Assembly (NCBI GenBank): GCA_016839605.1
Contig: JAEOTX010000165.1
Location: forward strand, 1-26,797
Source: Candidatus Thorarchaeota archaeon
GTDB lineage: Archaea > Asgardarchaeota > Thorarchaeia > Thorarchaeales > Thorarchaeaceae
Length of the DNA: 26,797 nucleotides
Direction of reading: 5' to 3'
Below are positions 8,342 to 25,652 of the stretch, piece after piece. The notes under the pieces are model-generated. The model had not been told where the DNA came from. It saw only the letters and a program-made list of their open reading frames with translations, and searched no databases. Both the position numbers and the translations under genes were made by a program. How positions within the stretch are numbered: position 1 is the stretch's first letter; every line of letters begins with the position of its first letter.

Positions 8342-9217
8342 TTAGAAATCAAAGATACTAGTGCTGAACTCGTCGTCGCCAACATCAATGCTAAGCTTGA
8401 GAGGAATTTCAATAACTCTATCAAACCGCCATGGAACGTCCAAGGTGACCTTTAGAATGTAAACGCACTCTATTAGTTCGGTCTTGAAGGGTTCAGGCCA
8501 ACTATCATCAGTTTTGATTGTCACATCCACCCAGCTCTCTCTGGGAACTCTATACTCTTCCCAGTACTGTAGATCCATCTCCGTATCGTAAGATGTTTCT
8601 CTTCCCTTAGGTGCAACATTTTCTCGTCGGAGAAGCTCAGTTCTTGCTCCTCGGATGTTTGCTTCGGTGCCAACCAGGAATCTGAAGCGAATATCTTCTC
8701 CCCGTTGAAAGGTGTCACTCTCTCCTTCCACTCGAAACAGATGCATACCCTCCTCCATATGCTCCTCCTGAATCATCATCGGTTCAAGACTAGCTGTTAT
8801 CCTTGTTGGCGCCTTGACGATAATGGTTTGCTCAACCTTTGGGTCAAGCGCCCACTTGACCTCTATCTTTCCTTTGATTATATATCGAATCCAACTGTAG
8901 TATCCCTCAAAGCTAGATACAGATTCTTCAGGGATATCAAAAGTGAACTCGTAGCGTGTTTCTCCCTCCAATACCCTTGACTGGTTGAGTAGTTCAAGGA
9001 ACTGCTCGAAATACTCATGCTCTTCCAGATATACTCGGCGATGCTTGCCGCTCCCCACTACGACCCTTGATTGCTCTTGGCAAGAAAATACCAAGTTTAC
9101 TGACTCACAATCAAAGTCCTCATCACTGAGGATAATGGCATGCCCCTCAACCCTTTCACCCGGAGAGTATTCAGATTTTGATAGATGTAACGATATCTCT
9201 CTCAATGCTGTCAACAC
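8342..9217 (-). CDS. arrestin-fold (alpha-arrestin/Spo0M-like) protein
   Basis: 'YSPGERVEG', 'GETRYEFTFDIP..SSFEGYYSWIRYIIKGKIEVKW..D' and a second repeat 'WPEPFKTELIECVYILKVTLDVPWRFD..IEIPL' match arrestin N and C beta-sandwiches. Confidence 0.8.
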   Translation of the reverse strand: MLTALREISLHLSKSEYSPGERVEGHAIILSDEDFDCESVNLVFSCQEQSRVVVGSGKHRRVYLEEHEYFEQFLELLNQSRVLEGETRYEFTFDIPEESVSSFEGYYSWIRYIIKGKIEVKWALDPKVEQTIIVKAPTRITASLEPMMIQEEHMEEGMHLFRVEGESDTFQRGEDIRFRFLVGTEANIRGARTELLRRENVAPKGRETSYDTEMDLQYWEEYRVPRESWVDVTIKTDDSWPEPFKTELIECVYILKVTLDVPWRFDRVIEIPLKLSIDVGDDEFSTSIFDF

Positions 9218-14583: not shown

Positions 14584-16893
14584 TTACTCTATGATGGCTG
14601 GAATAGTAACAGTGAACACCGTACCTTTGGTGTAATCTCCTTCTACTCTATCATCAACAGTAATAGTTCCGCTATAGGTTTCCGTCAGCGCATAGACCAT
14701 TGACAGCCCTAATCCAGTTCCTTCTGCACCTTCCATAAAGCGTTGGAATAGGGTGGCCTTCTTCTCAGGTTCGATTCCTTTTCCAAAATCAATGACTCTA
14801 GTTGCCCAAAACGAATTCCCGCCTGTTTCTGTTGGTTCTATCTCCACTACTATTCTTCTATGGTCTCGAGAATAAGCGATTGCATTCCTGAACAGGTTGT
14901 AGAAGAGATCACTGAGAAGGCCATTGGCTGTAACGAAGCACTCACTAGTATCTCTGTTTACAAGTATCTCTACTGTTTGATCTGGGAGTTCCATGAGAAC
15001 TTGCTCAATTGCATGGTCAATTGAACTGACTAAATCAATTGGCTCGAGAGGTGGAGGGCCATCCAAATCAGTCATCCCGAGACCTCTCACATTCCTAACG
15101 AGTTGATCAGCACGTCTGAGGCATCCACGGGCATCTTGCAATGCCATATCTTGCATATCCTGAGGCAATCCATCCATGTCCATCAATCCAAGCGCAACGG
15201 TCATGGCCTGATGTAGGTTTGAAATATCATGAGCCAAAATGTCAGAGTATAAAGTTGCTCTACGACGTGCCTCATCTGAACGAAACATCTCTTGAAGGTA
15301 TAACACACCTATCAGTGCTGGTCCAAGCAGCAGTCCAATGAGCAAGAACACTTCCGCAGCCCACCATCCTAAAACCCAATCATCGAAATTACCCTTCAGG
15401 AAGTTTGGAATTATCCAGATTGCTAGAATGCCAACAGAGAATCCTTCGATAGAACTCCATCGTTTGCGTTTCTCTGCCTGTAGATAGGCTAGATACGTAA
15501 ATGCAAACACTGCTACAAAATTGACGGAAAGCAGAATGACCCGGCCCAGTGGACTGCCGGATAGCCCTGGAGTTCCTGCAAGAATTCTCTCTTCAATCAG
15601 TTGTCCTCCGAATAGCATGATAATGATAATTCCTACACGAGAAGCAATCCAAAACTCTGAGTTTGCCATGTCGCCCTTAGGACTCTTACGAGTCCAAATG
15701 ATGCCTCTCACCAAGCAAACTACTGATGCAATACTACCCACAATGTAGGGGACTACCGATTCTCCCCAAATCATTAGGAGGCTAACATCTGCGAAGAGAA
15801 CTATATGCAGTTCGATATATGTCCAGCAGAAGAACAGGAGTATCAGAGGATAATGCACCCATTCTGGCTTATGCTTGTGATACGAATACGCCAAGAAACC
15901 CATTATGCCAGATAGGATAGCAGCTCCGAAGTGCGTTATAAAGTAGGCACCTAATTCAATAGCGTAGAAATCAGGAGCCCAAGAAGTTGCAATGATGCTA
16001 ATCATAAATGGGATAAAAGTAAGCATGCTCAGGAACACCGGGATAGCGAAAGCAGTGCGTCTGCTCATTCCCCATTTCAGCTGCATCGGTGCTGCAATGG
16101 CAATAGTGATCGCTAAGAATCCAAATGACTGCAAAACCATTCCATATGCCCAGAGAGAGCTTGGACTTAGCAGGGAGAATACAAGTGGGATGGTTGCGGC
16201 GGCAAATATGCAGAAGCTGATGAGAAGCAATGAAGTTTGACGGTCATTAGTTATGAAGGGACCTCGCGAACGCAAATAACTGGCGAGTGGGAGTGTGAAA
16301 ATCGCAATTAGAAAGAACAGTAGTCCCAGCTGCAATACTACTGCTTCATCCAGCATTGGCATCAGAAGATTCACAACAACGCCGTCTAATGATAGTTCCA
16401 GAATAATCAGAATTAGAGCCATAAACCAAGGGACCTTGGCATTAGGATTTCTCCTATAAGCAACCGCTGCAAGAAGCAAGACTAATCCCAACAGAGCCGA
16501 TTCAAAGAGGTCAAGTGACACATTTAGGATCGCATCATCAAGGAAGGAAGTTTCAGGTGCGAAAGCGAACTCGAATGAAGCACCCAAATGAATAATGGCT
16601 CTAGATACTAGGATAGAGAATATACCCATCTCATAGACAGGAAGTCGTCCCGTAGTTTCACTTACTGTCCATGCAGCAGCCATAATTGCTAGGAATGCAA
16701 GTAAGGAGTGAAACGCCACGCTTACTATAGCTGTATCCCATGAGGGTATTACGGGCAAATAGAGGGCAGTCGAAGCTAGAACGGTAACTATTATGCCATT
16801 TGGAACATCCCGACGTAGTTCACGGGGAGAAGCTAGTTCCGACTGCACTTGAAGTCCCTTCTTAGTTCGGGCCAGATTGAATTCCTCAGGCAT
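14584..16893 (-). CDS. membrane sensor histidine kinase with about 16 TM helices
   Basis: H-box 'ILAHDISN', N-box 'FYNLFRNAIAY', G1 'DFGKGI', F-box 'LFQRF' and G2 'GTGLGL', preceded by about 530 aa of polytopic membrane domain. Confidence 0.92.
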   Translation of the reverse strand: MPEEFNLARTKKGLQVQSELASPRELRRDVPNGIIVTVLASTALYLPVIPSWDTAIVSVAFHSLLAFLAIMAAAWTVSETTGRLPVYEMGIFSILVSRAIIHLGASFEFAFAPETSFLDDAILNVSLDLFESALLGLVLLLAAVAYRRNPNAKVPWFMALILIILELSLDGVVVNLLMPMLDEAVVLQLGLLFFLIAIFTLPLASYLRSRGPFITNDRQTSLLLISFCIFAAATIPLVFSLLSPSSLWAYGMVLQSFGFLAITIAIAAPMQLKWGMSRRTAFAIPVFLSMLTFIPFMISIIATSWAPDFYAIELGAYFITHFGAAILSGIMGFLAYSYHKHKPEWVHYPLILLFFCWTYIELHIVLFADVSLLMIWGESVVPYIVGSIASVVCLVRGIIWTRKSPKGDMANSEFWIASRVGIIIIMLFGGQLIEERILAGTPGLSGSPLGRVILLSVNFVAVFAFTYLAYLQAEKRKRWSSIEGFSVGILAIWIIPNFLKGNFDDWVLGWWAAEVFLLIGLLLGPALIGVLYLQEMFRSDEARRRATLYSDILAHDISNLHQAMTVALGLMDMDGLPQDMQDMALQDARGCLRRADQLVRNVRGLGMTDLDGPPPLEPIDLVSSIDHAIEQVLMELPDQTVEILVNRDTSECFVTANGLLSDLFYNLFRNAIAYSRDHRRIVVEIEPTETGGNSFWATRVIDFGKGIEPEKKATLFQRFMEGAEGTGLGLSMVYALTETYSGTITVDDRVEGDYTKGTVFTVTIPAIIE

Positions 16894-17090: not shown

Positions 17091-18128
17091 TTAGAATCGC
17101 TTTCTTCGCTTGGGATAGGCACTGAAGGGAGTCTTCGGTGTCTGGCTCACCCAATCCTTTTCGTCATCAATACGAGATAGGGAGCGAACGATATCGAAGG
17201 TGACCCACCGAGTTGCTTCAGGTCGAGGCTGATATTCCCAGAGGCCATAGGGTCCTTGTTGTACCTCAAACCAACTGACCAAATCCCTTACTCGTTCATC
17301 ATTTCTGTCTGCTCCTATCCTCCATGACAGATCTAGAATGAGCCCTGGGTCAAATCGTGCGTGATATGTGAAATGGCCACGATGTTGTTCAAATCCTATG
17401 AGGCGGGCGACATTGAGACCGACAGTCTTTCTATCTCTTGTTTCTCTTCCTAGGAGTAGATTCAATGCATGTTTAGCCTGAGGACTGGTTCTTCTAGAGG
17501 GATGATGAGCAAGAGCAGTAAGCGCAAGGGTTGTGTTTGTACGGCAAGCCCAGTCGGAGTGAGGCATCCTCCGATAGCCTGCCCTATAGCCAAGTACATC
17601 TCCTACCTTTCCCGTTGGCCAAGCTCCATCATCGAGTCGCTGGTCAATAAGCCAGTCATAAGCCATCTCTGCTCTCTTATCTGTTGCATGACCTGAAGCT
17701 GCGATCCCGAGCAAGGGAATGGATGTCTGAAGGGGAACCATGGTGTATACCCCTCCATCAAGGCTGCTTCCGTCGTATGTTTGAGGAATACCCCAGGAAC
17801 CATCTGTTCTCTGTAGCGAGAAAATGTATTCGACACCACTCTCTATAGCAGGATGATCCAGAGGGAGACCAATGTATCCAAGTCGTTGAAGTGCAAATGA
17901 TGTGGGACGAACTCTTTCTTTGGTTTCAGTGCCGCCAATGTCTATGTTCTTCCAAGACCCATCACTATTCTGTTTTTCCAGAAGACTATCCACCAGAGGA
18001 TCCTTCATGATGAGTTCTTCCAGTTCCATTACTTCAGGATCATCATCAGAACGACCTAGGAGCTCTTTGAGTACAAGTCGGCGTAGGCTTGGAGATCTAT
18101 CAGCCAGAAGAAGGGGGATCCAAGTCAT
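17091..18128 (-). CDS. QW-repeat prenyltransferase/squalene-cyclase-like alpha/alpha-barrel protein
   Basis: Repeats QNSDGSW, QRTDGSW, QRLDDGAW and QGPYGLW. ATG at 18128 overlaps the UvrA-like stop (ATGA) and is preceded by SD GGAGG. Confidence 0.8.
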   Translation of the reverse strand: MTWIPLLLADRSPSLRRLVLKELLGRSDDDPEVMELEELIMKDPLVDSLLEKQNSDGSWKNIDIGGTETKERVRPTSFALQRLGYIGLPLDHPAIESGVEYIFSLQRTDGSWGIPQTYDGSSLDGGVYTMVPLQTSIPLLGIAASGHATDKRAEMAYDWLIDQRLDDGAWPTGKVGDVLGYRAGYRRMPHSDWACRTNTTLALTALAHHPSRRTSPQAKHALNLLLGRETRDRKTVGLNVARLIGFEQHRGHFTYHARFDPGLILDLSWRIGADRNDERVRDLVSWFEVQQGPYGLWEYQPRPEATRWVTFDIVRSLSRIDDEKDWVSQTPKTPFSAYPKRRKRF

Positions 18129-21100
18129 GACACGCCCTCCAAGATTTCTTTCAAATATGGTGCTGTGGGCGTGTCCATCTGAGCTACTTCTCTGGGAGAT
18201 CCAGTGGCGATTACTTTTCCTCCCTTTGGTCCTCCAACAGGTCCAAGCTCCACTAGCCAATCACACGCCGCTAGGACATTTGGATGGTGTTCCACAACAA
18301 TGACAGTGTTGCCTTCTACAACAAGCCGCTGCAGCACACTGACGAGGCGGTCAACATCCTCTAAATGCTGGCCAACAGTAGGCTCATCAATGATGTAGAG
18401 TGTGCCAGACGAGTTCTTCTTTGAGAGTTCTTGTGCAATCTTGAGTCTCTGTATCTCTCCGCCAGATAGTGTCACACTTGGTTGCCTGAGGACCAAGTAT
18501 TCCAGACCCACATCTAATGCCATCTTTAGCTTTCTAGACACTCTTTCATCATCTTTGAATAGCTTGTAGATCTTGCCTAGGGTCATGCTATTTAGTTCTG
18601 GTAGGGAGACTCCCTTGACTCTCACATCCCATGCTTCAGGAGACCTCCCAGTCCCCTTACATGTTTCACACGGTGTGAATACATCTGGAAGGAACCCCAT
18701 CTCAGTCCTTATGCGTCCCCGTCCTTCGCATACCGAACATGGTATTGTGAGACTCTTGTAATTGAGACCTAATGCTTCAGCATCCTCACTCTCAGCATAT
18801 ATCTCTACGAGCGGCTTGAATAGGCCAAGAGCATGCCCAGGGCTACGAATCCCTTTCCGTCCTTGGCCAAGTATCACAACACGGTCTGGCCTCCCTGAGA
18901 TTGATTCGTGATCTCCGGGTTCAAGTGGTACATATGAAACGCTTGTAGTGAATTTCGTGGGGGCAAGGGCTCTGCCAATTGTGTCTATAACTAGAGTACT
19001 CTTCCCAGAGCCAGAGGTCCCGCATATCCCGATAAGGACTCCTAAGGGGAACTCAACTGATACGTTCTTGAGATTGTTTGCCTTTGCACCCTTGATCTTC
19101 ATCCATGCAATCGGGTCACGTGTTTCATCGCTAATAATAGGCACTCTGTCACCACGGAGCCATCGCGCTGTGATTGTGTCTGTCTTAATTATTTCAGGAG
19201 GAGTGCCAATAGCAACAATCTTTCCGCCCGATTCGCCTGACTTGGGACCCATGTCCACTAGAACATCAGCTGCTTTGATGACACCTAGATCATGTTCCAC
19301 GACAATCACTGAGTGTCCTTCATCCCGAAGTTCTCTCAATGCATCAACAAGAGCATCGACCTCAGATGGATGCATTCCTCGCGTGGGTTCATCGAGTAAG
19401 ACAGTTAGAGATGTCAGACCACTGCCCAAGAGCGACGAGAGAATGACTCTCTGCGATTCGCCAGCAGACAATGTGGCGGCCTCTCGATTCAAGTGGAGAT
19501 ATCCTAGACCTACCTTCTCCAGAAAGCCAAGCCGCTTGATTATTCTCTCAAGACTACCTCTAGCAATCTCTCCTTTCTTGGCTAATTTGATGGCACCAAG
19601 GACTTTCCTCAATTCAGAAATTGGAAGTCCATTCAATTCGTTGATAGTCATGCCTCGAAGCTGAATCTTCCGGAATCTCTCGCGAAGCCCGCTACCTTCA
19701 CATGCCTTGCAGGGTTCTCTCTTTGTGTATGTTCCCCCAACATCCCAATCACTGACCCATCGATAGAAACCGCTCCAATGTCCTTTCGAACTTCTCTCGA
19801 CACGTTTTCCTCTGCTAGTTCCAAGATAGGTTATCTCAAGTGGTTCTGGATTGGGGTCTCCGTGTAGAAATGCATTTTGAGCATATTCTGTGATTTCATT
19901 CCAAGGTGTGGTCTTCGGGTCGAATCCATACCGTTCTGCAAATGCATTGAGTGCGCCTCCAGCCCAGCTCGTTGGAGTACAGAAATAGCCCCTTGGGAAA
20001 TACCCTGGAGAGTACATGGCTCCTGCGCAAATTGGTTTATCAGGATTGATTATCAGCTTCTCAGGAATTGGCACCTGACGATGTCCGACACCACTACAGT
20101 CTACACAGGCTGATGTGTATGTTCTCGAAGAGAAGTCCCTAGGCCTCAATAATGGTGTCTGCGTGTGACAAATGGGGCATTCCAATGTTACCTCTCGTTT
20201 CATCATATTGCCGCACTTATCGCAGGGGACTCTCCCAATTGTTGCAAACAATGCAGCAAGGTGATTTGAGACCTCAGTCACAATTCCTACAGTTGTTCTG
20301 ACAGCATAGACTGACCAGAATCCAGCCCCTCTTCGCCGCCTCGATGTAATTGACATCGTCACGCCTAGTCCACTGACTGATTCAACAGGAGCCTCAGGAC
20401 CCTCCTTAGTCCCCTGCCTCTCATATACAGACAGGGACTCATAGTACCTTCGCTCTGCTTCAGCCTGCAGCACATCTCTGACCAACGAGCTCTTTCCAGA
20501 TCCAGATGGACCAGTCACAACGGTTAATTTTCCCTTAGGAATGTCCAGACTAACTGCTTTCAGGTTGTTTGCAGTAGCCTTCTTCACCTGGATGGAATCC
20601 GACACCCGTCCACTCTTTTCAGATTTTGTTCTCGGCGATAGTGTATGTTCTTCTTTTAGCGCACGGGCTGTCAATGATTTCTTGACTTTGCTAAGTTCAG
20701 TTGGTGCCCCGGCAAACAGCAGCTCTCCTCCATCAGGACCTGCACCCACACCAAGGTCAATAACCCAATCAGCAGAACGTACGATGTCAAGATTATGTTC
20801 AACAACAACAATGGTTGCTCCTGCTTCGACGAGGGTATTCAAAACACTCAGGAGACCGTGAAGGTCTGCAGCTGAAAGACCTGTAGAAGGTTCATCGAGG
20901 ATGAGCAGGCTATCTGAGAGCCCTCGTTTTCCAAGGAACTTGGCCAGCTTTACTCTTTGTGATTCGCCACCAGAGAGCTGAGGGGATGGTTGTCCAAGCT
21001 TAAGGTATCCAAGTCCTATAGTAACGAGAGCCCCGAGAATGTTGTTCGCTGACCGCTTCTTATTTTGAGGGAGTCGCTCTTCTTGAGCCAAGAGCGATTG

Positions 21101-23017
21101 AACTTCTTTGATGGAGAGCTGATAGAAGTCAGCTATAGTTAGATGCCTGCTACCAAACTCCACTTTGCTCTCAAGGACTTCAGGATTGAAGCGTTTTCCT
21201 TCACACACTGAGCAAGTGATCCATATAGATGGGAGATACCGCATCTTGACCTCTACAGCGCCCATGCCTTTGCAGGCGGGACACATACCTTCCGGCCTAT
21301 TGAATGAGAAATGAGATGCTGAGAGCTCGGACTCAGATGCGTAGAGGTCTCTCACAATGTCTGATAGTTTCGTGTAAGTAGCAGGATTTGAACGCGGATT
21401 TCTCCCTATTGGCCTCTGGTCCACAAGAACAGGCTTGAGTTGGTCACCCACAATGTCAGCGCATCCAATAGGCTCTTTCTTTTCCAATGAGGGAACAAGT
21501 ACATGTTCTACAAGCGTACTCTTTCCAGAACCAGATATTCCTGTTATGACAGTCAGACGTTTCAACGGTATATGAACATCAATGCCTTTGAGATTGTGTT
21601 TGGCAGCTTCTTTGATGACGAGGAATTCTTCTGGCGAATCCCGCTCACTCTTGATGGGCACGCTCTCGTGGAGACTGAAGTACCTCCCTGTAGTGGTGTC
21701 AGCTTTCCATAGCTCTGCAGGCGTACCAGCGAATACCACCTCCCCACCACTCTCCCCAGCTGCTGGTCCCATGTCTATTGCCCGATCTGCTTCTGCGGCT
21801 GCCATGCGATCATGTTCAACATAGATGACAGGACCTGGAAGTTCTCTAAACGCGGGAAGGAGCTTTTTGACATCAGCAGCACTCTGCCCTATTGTGGGTT
21901 CGTCGAGTACATGCACGACATCTTCCAGTCTATTAGTAAGTGAAATTGCCAAGCGAACCCTCTGACTCTCACCTCGAGAAAGACTTGGAGCTGGACGGTT
22001 GAGTTGAATATATCCAAGTCCTACTCTGAGCAAAGCGTCGAGTCTTTTCACTATCTCAAGCTTTAGTCTATTAGCAGTAGATGGCAGAACAGCTACCCTG
22101 AAGACTTTCCTAGCCTCATCGACTGTGAGTGCCATCAGTTCATCAAAACGGTGATCCTGCCATTTTACCATGGCTGCCTGGGAGTGCATTCCAGTGTAAC
22201 TACACACCTCACAGCCGCCACCACTGCATTCAGCACACTTCATTCGGAAGTGCTTTGGTTCTAGCTCATCCACCCACTTGCCGCACTCACTGCACTCTCC
22301 AGTTCTTGAGAGTCCAATATCTCCAGTTTTTGACTGGACAGCCACAGAATTTGCACCAAGAGCTGGAGCAATCCCCACACTCTCGCGAATCTGCTTTCTT
22401 GTTGCTTTTCCTTTGTATCTTCCAATGATGATCGAAATATCATGCTCTAATAATGGAGCTAATCCCTTCCTTTTCCATGGTTTGCCATCAACTATCAATG
22501 ACTCGATACCAAATTCATTACTAAGGAGATTGAGAATTGTAGAGTGACTTCCAGCGACTCCTCTCATCAATGGTGCAGTGAGTGTGATATCTTCTTTCTT
22601 GGATAGTTTCTCAATTCTCTCAACAATCTCGTCTTCAGTCATCTTTGAGAGTGATGCCCCGCACTGAACGCAGAATCTAGTTCCAAATCTTGTGAATAAT
22701 AGCCTGAGGAATGGATGGATGCCTGAAGCAGATGCTAGAGTTGAAAGCGGATTTCGATTTAGCAGATTCTGCCCAACAGCTACTGTCGGGCCGATGCCTG
22801 TTATGGAATCAACATTTGCAGGAGCAAGTCGGACCGTAGAGCGACCTGCATTAAACACCTCGAGAAATCTCCGACGAGCCTCATGATACATTGTATCGAA
22901 AACAAGTGAAGTCTTTCCAGAACCACTAATCCCCGTGACCACAGTGAGACCATCTTCTATATCAACATCAATGTCTTTGAGATTATTCTCACGGGCTCCG
23001 CGGACTCTGATCTTCAT
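18125..23017 (-). CDS. uvrA: tandem-duplicated (double-length) UvrA-family ABC ATPase
   Basis: Starts KIRVRGARENNLK. Four Walker A motifs (GISGSGKT, GISGSGKS, GPSGSGKS, GTSGSGKS), four signatures (LSRGESQR, LSGGESQR, LSAGESQR, LSGGEIQR), four DEP Walker B motifs with VEH, several CxxC zinc pairs, and PRSNPATY/FSFN. Confidence 0.92.
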   Translation of the reverse strand: MKIRVRGARENNLKDIDVDIEDGLTVVTGISGSGKTSLVFDTMYHEARRRFLEVFNAGRSTVRLAPANVDSITGIGPTVAVGQNLLNRNPLSTLASASGIHPFLRLLFTRFGTRFCVQCGASLSKMTEDEIVERIEKLSKKEDITLTAPLMRGVAGSHSTILNLLSNEFGIESLIVDGKPWKRKGLAPLLEHDISIIIGRYKGKATRKQIRESVGIAPALGANSVAVQSKTGDIGLSRTGECSECGKWVDELEPKHFRMKCAECSGGGCEVCSYTGMHSQAAMVKWQDHRFDELMALTVDEARKVFRVAVLPSTANRLKLEIVKRLDALLRVGLGYIQLNRPAPSLSRGESQRVRLAISLTNRLEDVVHVLDEPTIGQSAADVKKLLPAFRELPGPVIYVEHDRMAAAEADRAIDMGPAAGESGGEVVFAGTPAELWKADTTTGRYFSLHESVPIKSERDSPEEFLVIKEAAKHNLKGIDVHIPLKRLTVITGISGSGKSTLVEHVLVPSLEKKEPIGCADIVGDQLKPVLVDQRPIGRNPRSNPATYTKLSDIVRDLYASESELSASHFSFNRPEGMCPACKGMGAVEVKMRYLPSIWITCSVCEGKRFNPEVLESKVEFGSRHLTIADFYQLSIKEVQSLLAQEERLPQNKKRSANNILGALVTIGLGYLKLGQPSPQLSGGESQRVKLAKFLGKRGLSDSLLILDEPSTGLSAADLHGLLSVLNTLVEAGATIVVVEHNLDIVRSADWVIDLGVGAGPDGGELLFAGAPTELSKVKKSLTARALKEEHTLSPRTKSEKSGRVSDSIQVKKATANNLKAVSLDIPKGKLTVVTGPSGSGKSSLVRDVLQAEAERRYYESLSVYERQGTKEGPEAPVESVSGLGVTMSITSRRRRGAGFWSVYAVRTTVGIVTEVSNHLAALFATIGRVPCDKCGNMMKREVTLECPICHTQTPLLRPRDFSSRTYTSACVDCSGVGHRQVPIPEKLIINPDKPICAGAMYSPGYFPRGYFCTPTSWAGGALNAFAERYGFDPKTTPWNEITEYAQNAFLHGDPNPEPLEITYLGTSRGKRVERSSKGHWSGFYRWVSDWDVGGTYTKREPCKACEGSGLRERFRKIQLRGMTINELNGLPISELRKVLGAIKLAKKGEIARGSLERIIKRLGFLEKVGLGYLHLNREAATLSAGESQRVILSSLLGSGLTSLTVLLDEPTRGMHPSEVDALVDALRELRDEGHSVIVVEHDLGVIKAADVLVDMGPKSGESGGKIVAIGTPPEIIKTDTITARWLRGDRVPIISDETRDPIAWMKIKGAKANNLKNVSVEFPLGVLIGICGTSGSGKSTLVIDTIGRALAPTKFTTSVSYVPLEPGDHESISGRPDRVVILGQGRKGIRSPGHALGLFKPLVEIYAESEDAEALGLNYKSLTIPCSVCEGRGRIRTEMGFLPDVFTPCETCKGTGRSPEAWDVRVKGVSLPELNSMTLGKIYKLFKDDERVSRKLKMALDVGLEYLVLRQPSVTLSGGEIQRLKIAQELSKKNSSGTLYIIDEPTVGQHLEDVDRLVSVLQRLVVEGNTVIVVEHHPNVLAACDWLVELGPVGGPKGGKVIATGSPREVAQMDTPTAPYLKEILEGVS

Positions 23018-23129
23018 GCTTTCGCGCCGCCAGCTCTTCAATCAAGTGTTCAGTATATATCAATCTCTCGAAAACACCGAGTAAGTTGAGTTTGAAAACG
23101 CGTATATGTAAATCCGATATAGAATAATT

Positions 23130-23750
23130 ATGGTCATTCCGTGGTTGAATCTCATCTCTCTACATATCAGCGCCTTTCTTTTCGGCTATCTCTCAATTCT
23201 GAGCACGATGCCTGTGACTCTGGAGGAACAGCGAGGAGAGGAGGCATGGGACTACTGTAGGAGAATTCGCTATTGGTCGTTCGGTTTTGCGGCGATTATG
23301 GTTCTCAACGTAATTCTATGGGCATGGTTTCCTGTACCAGAGCTTAGCTGGCAGCTCAACCCGGATCCCATGTTTGGAATCGTAGTAGGATTGATCATAG
23401 CTATACCTTGTCTTGTGATCTTGATAATAGCAATGCGAGATGCAGGAGCTGAGATGCATGCTCCAGATAAGGAAACGACTCTGCATGGAGGAATCTACAA
23501 GAAAATCAGACATCCAGGTGCTCTGGGGGAAATGCCCCTTTATGTAGTCCTAGCAATGTTTGTCAACTCATTGTTTCTGGTCCTATGGATGATAGTCTAC
23601 GTCAGCATCTACACAGCAATAAACATCTATTATGAAGAGAAAGATCTGGTGAAGAGATTCGGAAGTGACTATATCGAGTATAGAGAGAGAACTCCTGCGC
23701 TTCTACCCGGATTCCGAAGAAAGGGATTAACGACGGAAGACAATATCTAG
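23130..23750 (+). CDS. ICMT/PEMT family membrane methyltransferase (second copy)
   Basis: TM helices plus 'GGIYKKIRHPG' and 'EEKDLVKRFGSDYIEYRERTPALLP'. Confidence 0.85.
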   Translation: MVIPWLNLISLHISAFLFGYLSILSTMPVTLEEQRGEEAWDYCRRIRYWSFGFAAIMVLNVILWAWFPVPELSWQLNPDPMFGIVVGLIIAIPCLVILIIAMRDAGAEMHAPDKETTLHGGIYKKIRHPGALGEMPLYVVLAMFVNSLFLVLWMIVYVSIYTAINIYYEEKDLVKRFGSDYIEYRERTPALLPGFRRKGLTTEDNI

Positions 23751-23769: not shown

Positions 23770-24975
23770 TTAGATGTTGTTTTTCAACTCAGTCAGAACC
23801 CTCGTTTCACTTTCACTGACCTGCTTGAGTAAATCACATACAGGGGTGATGAATTCCGAGAAATCAGAAATCTCGTCCTTTGCCGCGGTGTCAATCAAAT
23901 CGGGAACCTTCTTTGCTCGTTTCCCAACTTTATCGAGTGCGCTCAGTCCATGAGTTTCAAGATCCTGATTGATGGACCACTGAATCTCCCTCAATTCTTT
24001 CAACGCAGAGTACTCTTCAGGGAGAAGTCCAGCCGCAATCTCCTTCCACAGCTCAACTATCGTTTTGAATTCCTCTGCTGCTTGTAGCATATCAGAGCTA
24101 TTCATTAATTCACCTGCTTCCAGCAGAAAATCTCTGTATATCTGTCTGAAGATGGCTCCTCCAGAGCCTCCTGTTTCGATGTATACGTAATGCATCATTA
24201 AGGCATGGACTAGACTTCTTGGGTCTGGAAACATCCTTGGATATTTGACTAGTTCCTTACTCCATCTCACCATTCCTTTCACTCCAACATTGGAGATTGG
24301 AGGATTGAGTAACGCATCCGCATTCTCTCGAATTGCGTCGGGGATTATGTCCTCAAGAGGAGTCAATGATTCAGGGAATACGAACCGCACCATCTGATTC
24401 ATAGCTGGGAATGGAGCGTATTCTGAAGCCCGAGCTTTTTGCAGTTGAGTGAGAGTCATCTCGGTCGTGCCATGGAATCGGTCTGAGATGTAGGCCTTGT
24501 TAGTTGGTTCATCAATTCCGAAAACAAGGAAATTATGTTCGCCAAAATGGTCGTCTTCGCCAGTCAGTAAATGGTCGAGATAGGCCATGTCTACACATAC
24601 AAGCCCTGGCTGGTTTTGCTTCAGTGTATCCTTGAGGAAAATGTGTGCTTTCTTCACACTCTTGGTTAGGATTGATTCAAAGTCGCCACCTAGACGTTTC
24701 GCAGCCTTTCCAAGAATCCCTGGAAACTTTCTGCAGTCTGACCTGTTCATCCCTCCAACTATTGGGTATGGCATTTTCTTCATGAACCAATAGATGAATC
24801 CCATTCCAGCTGAGATTCCTACTAGCATTGGTTCGCTGATGTCATGCCCAAGATGGTGCATCAGTCGCTGCATTGAACTAGTTTGACAGTTTTTGCCATC
24901 GCCAAAGTGCTTGAAGTCGAGCATAATTCTTTCATCTTCAATGCCAGCTGGTTTGAACTCCTTTTTCTTACTCAT
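23770..24975 (-). CDS. BtrH-N / DUF4872-like putative papain-fold peptidase
   Basis: 'KNCQTSS', 'SEPMLVGISAGMGFIYW', 'VDMAYL', 'HFGEHNFLVFGID', 'ISDR' and 'ETGGSGGAIFRQIYRDFLLEA'. SD AGGTGA overlaps the PadR stop. Confidence 0.75.
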   Translation of the reverse strand: MSKKKEFKPAGIEDERIMLDFKHFGDGKNCQTSSMQRLMHHLGHDISEPMLVGISAGMGFIYWFMKKMPYPIVGGMNRSDCRKFPGILGKAAKRLGGDFESILTKSVKKAHIFLKDTLKQNQPGLVCVDMAYLDHLLTGEDDHFGEHNFLVFGIDEPTNKAYISDRFHGTTEMTLTQLQKARASEYAPFPAMNQMVRFVFPESLTPLEDIIPDAIRENADALLNPPISNVGVKGMVRWSKELVKYPRMFPDPRSLVHALMMHYVYIETGGSGGAIFRQIYRDFLLEAGELMNSSDMLQAAEEFKTIVELWKEIAAGLLPEEYSALKELREIQWSINQDLETHGLSALDKVGKRAKKVPDLIDTAAKDEISDFSEFITPVCDLLKQVSESETRVLTELKNNI

Positions 24976-24980
24976 GATAT

Positions 24981-25652
24981 TCACCTGCTACCTTTTCGAA
25001 AGAGAAATCCTGCTTCATCTTTCTCTATCTTCAACACCAGATCTTCTAGCCATTTCCTCTCACATTTCAGTCTGACATGCGGTCTCTCAAACAATGCTAG
25101 AACTACTCCCAAGTGAGCATCCGGTGGAATCTCAGATGCCTTCACTCCTCCAACGATTCGATCAGGGTCAACTTCACGTATTCTTTCTAGGTTTCTAAGA
25201 ACCTCAGCATTGCTACCAAGAAATTGAATCTGCTCGCTTAGATTGGTCAATCGTTTCTTGAGTGAATCCACAGCTTCTTCTTTTGTCAACTGGAAGATTG
25301 CAGACATTCCTAAGTCGAATAGACTGTTTGCTTTTGGAGGATCGACTAAGCATCTCACAATTTGATTCCGAAGCAGGCTAGAGCCTTTCCTGGTGATGGA
25401 GTATGTCTTCTTGGATGGCTGCATCTTCACGTCAGATTTCTGGCCCTTGATTAGACCCTTTATTTCCAGCTCCTTTAGAGCCTTGTATATCGATGAGAAT
25501 TTGATGTCTACCCAGTTCCGATATCCACGTTGCTCTAGAATCTGGTTTATCTCGTAGCCGTATTTCGCCCCTGCTCCGATGAGTGAAAGAACTGCGAGAT
25601 AGGTCGAGGGCAATAGATCTGGTTGCTGCAATTCTGATTTGGTCTGTGCCAT
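24981..25652 (-). CDS. PadR family transcriptional regulator
   Basis: 'VLSLI..GAKYGYEI', 'SSIYKALKELEIKGLI' and 'KKTYSITRKG' wHTH, followed by a C-terminal dimerisation helix 'ERKWLE'. Confidence 0.9.
   Translation of the reverse strand: MAQTKSELQQPDLLPSTYLAVLSLIGAGAKYGYEINQILEQRGYRNWVDIKFSSIYKALKELEIKGLIKGQKSDVKMQPSKKTYSITRKGSSLLRNQIVRCLVDPPKANSLFDLGMSAIFQLTKEEAVDSLKKRLTNLSEQIQFLGSNAEVLRNLERIREVDPDRIVGGVKASEIPPDAHLGVVLALFERPHVRLKCERKWLEDLVLKIEKDEAGFLFRKGSR

Follow-up and report, generated by a model that had tools for sequence, protein, structure and literature searches.

A two-gene module pairing a fused, asymmetric double UvrA with an alpha/alpha-toroid protein in Asgard archaea and bacteria

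Introduction

UvrA has long been studied as a sensor of DNA damage. Two questions are open in the UvrA field, namely how the dimer discriminates damaged from normal DNA and what role is played by the paralogues that do without UvrB. With regard to the latter, class II UvrAs confer resistance to DNA-binding drugs without UvrB or UvrC (PMC9328131), and those of class IIa have been described as having no first zinc finger (PMC9328131). A natural asymmetric UvrA dimer in one chain could reveal which half does what.

Here we describe a locus at positions 17091-23017 of a stretch of DNA from a Candidatus Thorarchaeota archaeon (GCA_016839605.1, contig JAEOTX010000165.1, positions 1-26,797 of the forward strand; this whole stretch of 26,797 nucleotides is referred to as the window). 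A fused double UvrA is encoded there directly upstream of a protein with an alpha/alpha-toroid fold. A first-pass annotation had read the two as a protection or detoxification module that handles a DNA-binding compound or adduct outside nucleotide excision repair, an interpretation that as a whole is partly supported by our analysis. A literature search, the results of which were crowded by UVRAG and Ames-test papers, returned no description of the pair or of any fused, asymmetric UvrA. We conclude that the pair is a real, undescribed two-protein module that probably functions in DNA surveillance.

Results

Both genes lie on the minus strand. Translation places the UvrA reading frame between an ATG at 23017 and a TGA at 18127-18125, and that of the toroid between an ATG at 18128-18126 and a stop at 17093-17091. 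An in-frame TTG at 23041 was ruled out as the UvrA start, since the N-termini of the orthologues begin at the ATG. The features of the locus are as follows.

23054-23060, minus strand: ATATATA, a putative archaeal TATA box 37-43 nt upstream of the UvrA ATG (read from the sequence)
18125-23017, minus strand: gene for the fused double UvrA, 1630 aa, four ABC modules (open reading frame and translation; TIGR00630 in four pieces)
20603-23017, minus strand: UvrA half 1, aa 1-805, with a UvrB-binding-type domain and with the insertion domain deleted (TIGR00630 match and alignment to canonical UvrAs)
22232-22684, minus strand: zinc module 1 and UvrB-binding-type domain of half 1, aa 112-262 (PF17760)
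18128-20602, minus strand: UvrA half 2, aa 806-1630, with an insertion domain and with the UvrB-binding domain missing (TIGR00630 match and alignment)
19688-20227, minus strand: zinc modules and insertion domain of half 2, aa 931-1110 (PF17755)
18135-18140, minus strand: GGAGGG, Shine-Dalgarno-like, within the UvrA coding sequence and 6 nt before the toroid ATG (read from the sequence)
18125-18128, minus strand: ATGA, the stop/start overlap of UvrA and toroid (read from the sequence)
17091-18128, minus strand: gene for the alpha/alpha-toroid partner, 345 aa (translation; PF13243)

No uvrB or uvrC was found within the window, as had been noted at first pass. A canonical uvrB-uvrA-uvrA cluster and uvrC are present on other contigs of the same genome, where the uvrB and uvrC matches fall only on C172 and C258. 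With two canonical uvrA copies, uvrB and uvrC thus encoded separately, the double UvrA is an extra, non-canonical paralogue, which is what had been suspected.

Pfam recognizes four ABC_tran domains in the 1630-aa protein, together with UvrA_inter and UvrA_DNA-bind. Half 1 covers positions 1-285 and 406-923 of the TIGR00630 profile and half 2 positions 2-128 and 251-924, and alignment to the genome's own canonical UvrAs confirms the domain layout of both. The losses are complementary: half 1 has lost the insertion domain and half 2 the UvrB-binding domain. This complementary loss, which was absent from the first-pass annotation, is more informative than any other feature of the ATPase, and judged by its layout the double UvrA is a lopsided single-chain pseudo-dimer. 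The separate TIGR00630 matches score 536, 490, 174 and 99 bits, all under the cut-off of 729.8, and each half alone is likewise below it; the protein reaches a total of 1346 bits only because it contains two units.

Both accessory domains score below their canonical counterparts. In half 1, PF17760 matches aa 127-229 with 38-42 bits (cut-off 23.3) as compared to 128 in the canonical UvrA of the same genome, and no part of the protein is less conserved than the UvrB-binding-type domain, whose mean identity is 0.41-0.60. The insertion domain of half 2 scores 30 bits against PF17755 as compared to 82 in canonical UvrA; this variant occurs only in proteins of ~1620 aa or in truncated records, and residues 961-1050 match the ATPase cores in conservation (0.72-0.79). 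In 36 orthologues there is no variation in the Walker A, Walker B, signature or H-loop residues at any of the four ATPase sites, nor in the cysteines of the zinc modules or of the two C-terminal zinc fingers. On the strength of these motifs and cysteines the double UvrA is predicted to be a working ATPase and DNA binder.

A lone ATGA overlap is commonplace in operons. In the raw sequence the UvrA TGA sits inside an ATGA whose ATG opens the toroid gene, and the GGAGGG overlies the UvrA codons L-E-G, so that both the shared ATGA and the Shine-Dalgarno sequence within the 3' end of the ATPase gene had been read correctly at first pass. The junction (ATGA, GTGA or TTGA) and the internal GGAGG, which is encoded by the conserved L-E-G at the UvrA C-terminus, are kept in 28 of 30 Asgard loci, and the 4-nt overlap is preserved in 60 of 80 loci drawn from archaea and bacteria. 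Judged across these loci, the conservation of the UvrA/toroid junction, unlike one ATGA overlap alone, exceeds chance. A shared mRNA and translational coupling suggest that the two proteins are made in near-equal amounts.

The toroid carries three to four QW-type repeats (QNSDGSW at 53, QRTDGSW at 106, QRLDDGAW at 163 and QGPYGLW at 291) and ends in the basic tail PKRRKRF, of which the K-R-[FY] ending is conserved in the family. It scores 43.7 bits against PF13243, and its AlphaFold2 model has a pLDDT of 87 and a pTM of 0.88. The repeats, the tail and the lack of a DxDD motif had all been recognized previously and are confirmed in the sequence, with the fold being an alpha/alpha toroid. Foldseek against the PDB returned only low TM-scores of 0.3-0.5; a wider structural search, in which matches to complement TED domains and squalene cyclase reached Z 14-15, confirmed the fold and yielded no function, and a search of a protein atlas retrieved only the toroid's own family. 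This family is tight, with ~12 full-length clusters at 50% identity. A candidate fusion involving the toroid (741 aa on a 2.8-kb contig) was rejected as it looks like a frameshift, with out-of-frame sequence replacing the last ~45 UvrA residues.

The DxDD of squalene-hopene cyclase aligns to the near-invariant P132-L-Q134-T135 (PLQT) of the toroid. No conserved DxDD was found among 36 family members, though in two of them the motif occurs by chance within a variable loop, and the CGEQ thioester motif is missing from all 36. Scores against the cyclase families TIGR01507 and TIGR01787 are 38 and 39 bits, as compared to cut-offs of 431 and 323. The protein has a terpene-cyclase fold without the catalytic acid and, by its sequence, is not a cyclase. 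In a comparison with prenyltransferase beta subunits PF00432 was unmatched, GGTase-III beta gave a fold match with Z 11.4, and C195 was invariant and H209 near-invariant. The invariant residues are polar and Arg-rich (Q134, T135, Y185, R186, C195, R196, N198, T199, T200, D260 and R279), and helix boundaries taken from the model would place them at the N-terminal ends of the inner helices, on one face of the ring. The protein is near neutral (pI 6.8), and no recognized nucleic-acid-binding or nuclease domain was found in it.

The toroid has a patchy distribution, being present in ~105 of 400 Asgard genomes and also in Bathyarchaeia, Chloroflexota and a few other bacteria. The immediate upstream neighbour of the toroid gene is a double UvrA in 28 of 30 Asgard loci, in all 16 loci of another set and in 73 of 75 informative loci, and the arrangement extends to the most distant representatives of the toroid family. 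There are two exceptions: at L107 no UvrA lies within 6 kb, and at L133 a gap of 1.4 kb intervenes. Conversely, five toroid-less genomes of the same family, at 92-98% completeness, are also without the double UvrA. The first-pass proposal of a conserved, translationally coupled pair thus holds in both archaea and bacteria. No third conserved neighbour gene was found across the loci, where the neighbours are heterogeneous and the PadR/BtrH-like, histidine-kinase and AlkZ-like ones are lineage-specific. The loci compared, among them those retrieved with a 6-sequence alignment, indicate that the module has moved across phyla and domains as a two-gene unit without uvrB, and that it is horizontally mobile.

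UvrA and toroid have the same mean column identity (64%), and their pairwise distances correlate with r = 0.91. Beyond the rest of UvrA, the toroid correlates with UvrA residues 931-1110 at a partial r of 0.52 (jackknife 0.47-0.58), a statistic that is exploratory, being drawn from 36 related sequences in which shared lineage-specific rate shifts could inflate it. For comparison, the highest partial correlation among 45 segment pairs inside UvrA was 0.39. The insertion domain ranked top in 294 of 300 random half-samples, and the toroid side of the signal comprises residues 121-240. Prediction of a complex of UvrA 806-1295, UvrA 112-262 and the toroid scored 0.72, equal to a control in which chain 1 was replaced, and 0.00 when the toroid was replaced. 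This outcome weighs neither for nor against binding. In the reading proposed below, UvrA and the toroid would bind each other physically.

Discussion

We propose, with a probability of roughly 0.5, that the pair is a self-contained two-protein DNA-surveillance module working beside canonical UvrABC. The fused UvrA would scan DNA for distortions or bound adducts, like UvrA dimers, and the toroid, made from the same mRNA, would be a dedicated subunit of the ATPase that recognizes, holds or processes what the ATPase finds. The insertion domain is the DNA-proximal domain of UvrA, and since it is this domain that the divergence of toroid residues 121-240 tracks, the toroid may act at the lesion. 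More tentatively, we speculate that the toroid is a new UvrA client that replaces UvrB, docking on the fused sensor, with its conserved polar face gripping or chemically processing a bulky adduct or a flipped-out nucleotide.

Alternatively, the locus might encode a specialized front end for excision repair, in which the fused UvrA recruits one UvrB and the toroid only tunes the choice of damage or the loading. The half 1 domain passes the Pfam UvrA_inter threshold, and 322 of 400 Asgard genomes, as well as the window's own, carry uvrB, although this gene is so nearly universal that its co-occurrence with the module is uninformative. Given this domain and the presence of uvrB in nearly all hosts, a hand-over to UvrB may occur. 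It was this point that weakened the analogy to DrrC drawn at first pass: half 2 indeed has no UvrB-binding domain, yet a diverged one survives in half 1, and the analogy therefore does not establish that the double UvrA is independent of UvrB. Nevertheless, a front end of this kind is unlikely, as the half 1 domain is the least conserved (42 bits as compared to 128), two canonical uvrA genes already adjoin uvrB, and the module travels between phyla as a gene pair without it.

The module might instead confer genotoxin resistance in the manner of DrrC or Ecm16, with the ATPase displacing a DNA-bound compound and the toroid cavity capturing or modifying it. Class II UvrAs do provide such resistance without UvrB and UvrC (PMC9328131), half 2 has their layout, and one Asgard family has a class II-type UvrA gene immediately upstream. 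The toroid fold, moreover, typically encloses hydrophobic ligands, and among the neighbours are a few members of the glyoxalase/bleomycin-resistance superfamily (4/110) and AlkZ-like glycosylases (5 loci). We consider this quite improbable, however: the pair was not located in biosynthetic clusters, its neighbours are heterogeneous, the toroid's invariant positions are polar and rich in Arg, not hydrophobic, and no compound is known.

A role in defence against foreign DNA, with the UvrA-like ATPase sensing phage or plasmid DNA and the toroid as effector, would suit a compact two-gene operon with a patchy distribution and a history of transfer across phyla and domains. ABC ATPases are frequent in defence systems, and in PADLOC 2.0 the UvrA matches mad3 and mad8. 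These matches are generic ABC homology, MAD3 being an OLD-type ATPase (PMC13662399), and the toroid matches no model. Furthermore, the neighbours are not defence genes, a plasmid collection held no toroid orthologue (only squalene-cyclase paralogues), and ~55% identity between domains of life is unusually conserved for a defence gene, all of which makes this role very improbable. That the toroid is a lipid or isoprenoid enzyme merely sharing a transcript with UvrA, as its weak similarity to squalene-cyclase repeats might hint, is hardly credible with DxDD missing, scores far below the family cut-offs, and a strict adjacency, overlap and co-variation with UvrA in two domains that would be hard to explain.

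If the toroid is indeed a client replacing UvrB, the pair would represent a third UvrA-dependent pathway, apart from excision repair and drug displacement, in Asgard archaea, Bathyarchaeia and Chloroflexota. The toroid brings in a fold that had not been connected with DNA before, and work on the pair could bring to light a way of repairing or protecting DNA that is common among archaea and bacteria of sediments, the Asgard relatives of eukaryotes among them.

Comparison with known systems

As in class I UvrA (TIGR00630 / NF001503), each half of the double UvrA has two ABC modules, zinc modules 1 and 2 and a C-terminal zinc finger, and the whole protein has one UvrB-binding-type and one insertion domain. 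Class I UvrA, however, is a homodimer of ~940-aa subunits as compared to one fused 1630-aa chain here, and has both accessory domains in each unit where each half of the double UvrA is without one; the double UvrA has a dedicated toroid and coexists with true class I UvrAs.

Class II UvrAs (DrrC, Ecm16 and Deinococcus UvrA2) resemble the double UvrA in being accessory paralogues beside a canonical UvrA and, like half 2, have no UvrB-binding domain (PMC9328131, PMC3167621). The double UvrA differs in its fusion, in its partner protein, in the diverged UvrB-binding domain kept by half 1 and, with regard to class IIa, in the zinc module 1 cysteines kept by half 2. The Chlamydia-type double UvrA (NF001885 / PRK00635, 1809 positions) shares the double length and the four ABC modules; assignment to this family was rejected, with 861 bits as compared to a cut-off of 3054.

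The partner shares the alpha/alpha toroid and QW repeats with class II terpene cyclases (squalene-hopene cyclase, drimenyl diphosphate synthase and MstE), and differs in being a single 345-aa toroid with PLQT in place of the squalene-hopene cyclase DxDD. The best likeness in fold is to the TEDs of complement C3/C4/C5 and alpha-2-macroglobulin (Z 13-15 over ~250 aligned residues), non-enzymatic toroids that serve as binding modules. The partner differs from these in lacking CGEQ, in an identity of 13-16% and in being a stand-alone cytoplasmic protein.

A fused UvrA and its overlapping partner gene

The pair consists of a gene for a fused UvrA-like ATPase, referred to here as the double UvrA, and directly downstream of it a gene for an alpha/alpha-toroid protein, the partner. 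The first-pass annotation had placed the stop of the ATPase and the start of its partner within a shared ATGA and a Shine-Dalgarno sequence inside the 3' end of the ATPase gene, and both can be read in the sequence.

23017-18125, minus strand: double UvrA gene, ATG at 23017 to TGA at 18127-18125, 1630 aa (open reading frame and translation)
18128-17091, minus strand: partner gene, ATG at 18128-18126 to stop at 17093-17091, 345 aa (open reading frame and translation)
18128-18125, minus strand: ATGA, stop/start overlap of the two genes (raw sequence)
18140-18135, minus strand: GGAGGG, inside the upstream UvrA coding sequence, 6 nt 5' of the partner ATG (raw sequence)

An in-frame TTG at 23041 would lengthen the UvrA reading frame and was rejected as its start, since orthologues begin at the ATG at 23017.

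The genome assembly is Asgard (Thorarchaeota-type), 3.08 Mb and 80% complete. The first-pass annotation proposed to check for separate canonical uvrABC genes, and the genome has them: on contig C172 (loci L001, L002 and L009) uvrB precedes a tandem pair of canonical uvrA genes, whose reading frames of 966 aa and at least 932 aa both score above the TIGR00630 cut-off, and uvrC is on contig C258. The genome has three UvrA genes including the fused double-length one, which, with canonical uvrA, uvrB and uvrC elsewhere, is therefore an extra paralogue.

Conservation and spread

Of 400 Asgard genomes, about 105, spread over several families, have an orthologue of the partner (46-100% identity over the full length); a further 34 have only paralogues at about 27% identity. 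The partner start abuts the UvrA C-terminus in 28 of 30 fetched Asgard loci, the two exceptions being one ended by a contig edge and one with a gap. The junction in Asgard loci is ATGA, GTGA or TTGA preceded by GGAGG, which is encoded by a conserved L-E-G of the UvrA. All 16 of the longer Asgard loci have a double UvrA of 1620-1642 aa and the 4-nt overlap, although one looks degraded, and the most distant partner-family representatives also have a long UvrA gene upstream with the overlap present. The double UvrA was likewise not found in five near-complete genomes of the same family that do not have the partner.

A wider scan, with one genome per species, gave partner relatives in 203 genomes, of which the best 80 were examined. 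These 80 (48-87% identity) belong to Thor-, Heimdall-, Hod- and Hermod-archaeota, Bathyarchaeia and Chloroflexota (Anaerolineae, Thermoflexales), with single bins of Zixibacteria, Aminicenantes and Spirochaetales. The adjacency across archaea and bacteria that the first-pass annotation proposed to look for is there: among the best 80, a UvrA lies directly upstream of the partner in 73 of the 75 loci whose upstream DNA is long enough to tell, and 60 of the 80 have the 4-nt overlap. Some long-read assemblies have frameshifted UvrA genes. Adjacency fails in a Chloroflexia bin (locus L107, on a 1.24-Mb contig), where no UvrA lies within 6 kb upstream of the partner, and in a Hodarchaeota bin (locus L133, the same as L043), where about 1.4 kb separates the two genes. 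One protein record from a 2.8-kb metagenome contig (P0273, 741 aa) appears to fuse a UvrA C-terminal fragment to the partner; it was rejected as a true fusion because out-of-frame sequence stands in for the final ~45 residues of the UvrA, probably through a frameshift or assembly error.

Asgard, Bathyarchaeia and Chloroflexota interleave in the partner tree, which points to transfer of the module between phyla and domains, although the single odd bins could be binning errors.

Gene neighbourhood

No third conserved gene was found by clustering of flanking reading frames or in a Pfam tally of 110 immediate neighbours, where no family had more than 5 members. Downstream neighbours are mostly convergent to the partner, so the operon normally ends with it.

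Some recurrent or unusual neighbours deserve mention. Upstream of the UvrA, at 23770-25652 (minus strand), a PadR regulator overlaps a BtrH_N/DUF4872 protein; in the three closest relatives (loci L064, L065, L067) 121 nt separate the end of the BtrH-like gene from the UvrA, and in the window a 206-aa reading frame with weak phospholipid methyltransferase similarity (23130-23750, plus strand) lies between them on the opposite strand. A same-strand gene that begins 197 nt past the partner encodes a 769-aa histidine-kinase-like protein (14584-16893, minus strand; HATPase_c only), and relatives at 40-70% identity occur near the pair in several Thorarchaeota-type loci, in some with an intervening opposite-strand gene. 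Four Thorarchaeota-type loci (L073, L074, L078, L097) have AlkZ-like DNA glycosylase genes within about 4 kb downstream of the partner (PF06224, E 1e-49 in the one gene scanned), and locus L100 has a 108-aa AlkZ-like fragment about 3.6 kb upstream. One Asgard family shows a three-gene arrangement (L046, L047, L050, L051, L052, L056, L057; for instance L047:14103-16610, minus strand) in which a class II-type UvrA of about 835 aa, without TIGR00630 positions ~129-251, that is, the UvrB-binding domain, directly precedes the double UvrA. At 8342-9217 (minus strand) the window encodes a 291-aa protein with Arrestin_N (E 2e-18) and Arrestin_C, a eukaryote-type fold in an Asgard genome.

Architecture of the double UvrA

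Pfam and NCBIfam both find UvrA twice over in the 1630-aa protein, and the UvrA profile TIGR00630 matches it in four pieces: positions 1-285 and 406-923 in half 1 (aa 1-805), and 2-128 and 251-924 in half 2 (aa 806-1630). By alignment with the canonical UvrAs of the same genome, half 1 has retained the UvrB-binding domain, and its insertion domain is missing through a clean deletion that falls between the cysteine pairs of zinc module 2. Half 2 is the converse: the insertion domain is there, and a deletion between the zinc module 1 cysteine pairs has removed the UvrB-binding domain. No variation was seen among 36 orthologues at the Walker A lysines (K35, K499, K842 and K1339), at the Walker B, signature or H-loop positions of any of the four ATPase sites, or at any zinc-module cysteine. 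Judged by these residues, the ATPase is intact at four sites and has the DNA-binding zinc fingers of UvrA. Given this complementary domain loss and the invariant ATPase and zinc residues, the protein is a UvrA pseudo-dimer in a single chain, carrying one of each kind of accessory domain.

The two accessory domains are themselves far from canonical: UvrA_inter scores 42 bits against 128 in the genome's canonical UvrA, and UvrA_DNA-bind 30 against 82. Within the family, conservation is lowest in the UvrB-binding-type domain (mean identity 0.41-0.60), and the initial portion of the insertion domain is on a level with the ATPase cores (0.72-0.79). In a protein search, this half-2 insertion-domain variant was seen only in proteins of about 1620 aa or truncated records (245 clusters, all from metagenome bins).

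A toroid without the cyclase DxDD motif

The partner matches the squalene-cyclase repeat family PF13243 weakly (43.7 bits) and scores far under the NCBIfam cyclase cut-offs. Its family is tight: when 1.84 billion representative proteins were searched, roughly a dozen full-length clusters reached E < 1e-70, and below them came a gap before generic repeat proteins appeared at ~1e-13. The AlphaFold2 model is all-helical and confident (pLDDT 87, pTM 0.88), with a disordered tail. By structural comparison it belongs with the alpha/alpha toroids, and scores are highest (Z 14-15) against complement thioester domains, squalene-hopene cyclase and drimenyl diphosphate synthase. When solved structures were searched with a profile, squalene-hopene cyclase was matched through the QW repeats only.

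The protein had been described as a QW-repeat protein without DxDD, and this holds across the family: three to four QW repeats are retained, and the 36 members have neither a conserved DxDD nor a CGEQ thioester motif. The cyclase DxDD aligns to the near-invariant P132-L-Q134-T135, an approximate equivalence in a stretch scoring just 11.5 bits. The partner is thus excluded as a canonical class II cyclase. Among the invariant residues are D109/G110/W112, D167/G168/W170, Y185/R186, C195/R196/N198/T199/T200, D260, R279 and W326; going by the helix boundaries of the model, many would lie at the N-terminal ends of the inner helices, the usual working face of alpha/alpha toroids. Archaeal and bacterial members share a conserved N-terminus (MTWxPLLL) and C-terminus (K-x-K-R-[FY]).

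Co-variation of the two proteins

Over the same 36 genomes both proteins have a mean column identity of 64%, with r = 0.91 between the two matrices of pairwise distances. When partner distances were compared with each UvrA segment, controlling for the rest of UvrA, residues 931-1110 (half-2 zinc modules and insertion domain) gave a partial r of 0.52 (Spearman 0.59; jackknife range 0.47-0.58) and ranked top in 294 of 300 random half-samples. The value for the UvrB-binding-type domain was 0.16, and the maximum over the 45 pairs of UvrA segments among themselves was 0.39. The signal maps to partner residues 121-240, comprising the PLQT helix and the GYRR...CRSNTT stretch, and is absent from UvrA segments of similar evolutionary rate. 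It is also absent from the C-terminal ATPase module, which is coded between the insertion-domain region and the partner gene, so 3'-end recombination is an unlikely cause. This suggests that the partner is functionally coupled to the half-2 insertion-domain region, although the statistic is exploratory, uses related sequences and does not prove contact.

Interpretation

The pair is strictly conserved, co-translated and co-evolving. We propose that the double UvrA would sense DNA distortions as UvrA does, and that the toroid would be its subunit, acting at the lesion. Because it is the two genes together that pass between archaea and bacteria, the module should depend on no host-specific factor apart from DNA and perhaps UvrB, which is widespread.

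The foremost alternative, a specialised UvrB-dependent sensor, is unlikely though it merits consideration: half 1 retains a UvrB-binding domain, which is also the part most variable within the family. The presence of uvrB in 322 of 400 Asgard genomes makes its co-occurrence with the module uninformative either way. Somewhat less probable still is the earlier suggestion of genotoxin resistance of the DrrC/Ecm16 type, with the toroid binding or modifying, as a sink, a hydrophobic DNA-binding compound or adduct that the ATPase removes. A defence system is improbable, and that the toroid is an unrelated enzyme is barely credible beside such constant adjacency.

A literature search found no paper on the pair. 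Public records name the UvrA 'excinuclease ABC subunit A' or 'ATP-binding cassette domain-containing protein', and the partner 'hypothetical protein' or 'prenyltransferase/squalene oxidase repeat-containing protein'. Among known systems, a dumb-bell arrangement of the UvrB-binding and insertion domains has been described (PMC3167621), and class II UvrAs such as Ecm16 work without UvrB or UvrC (PMC9328131).
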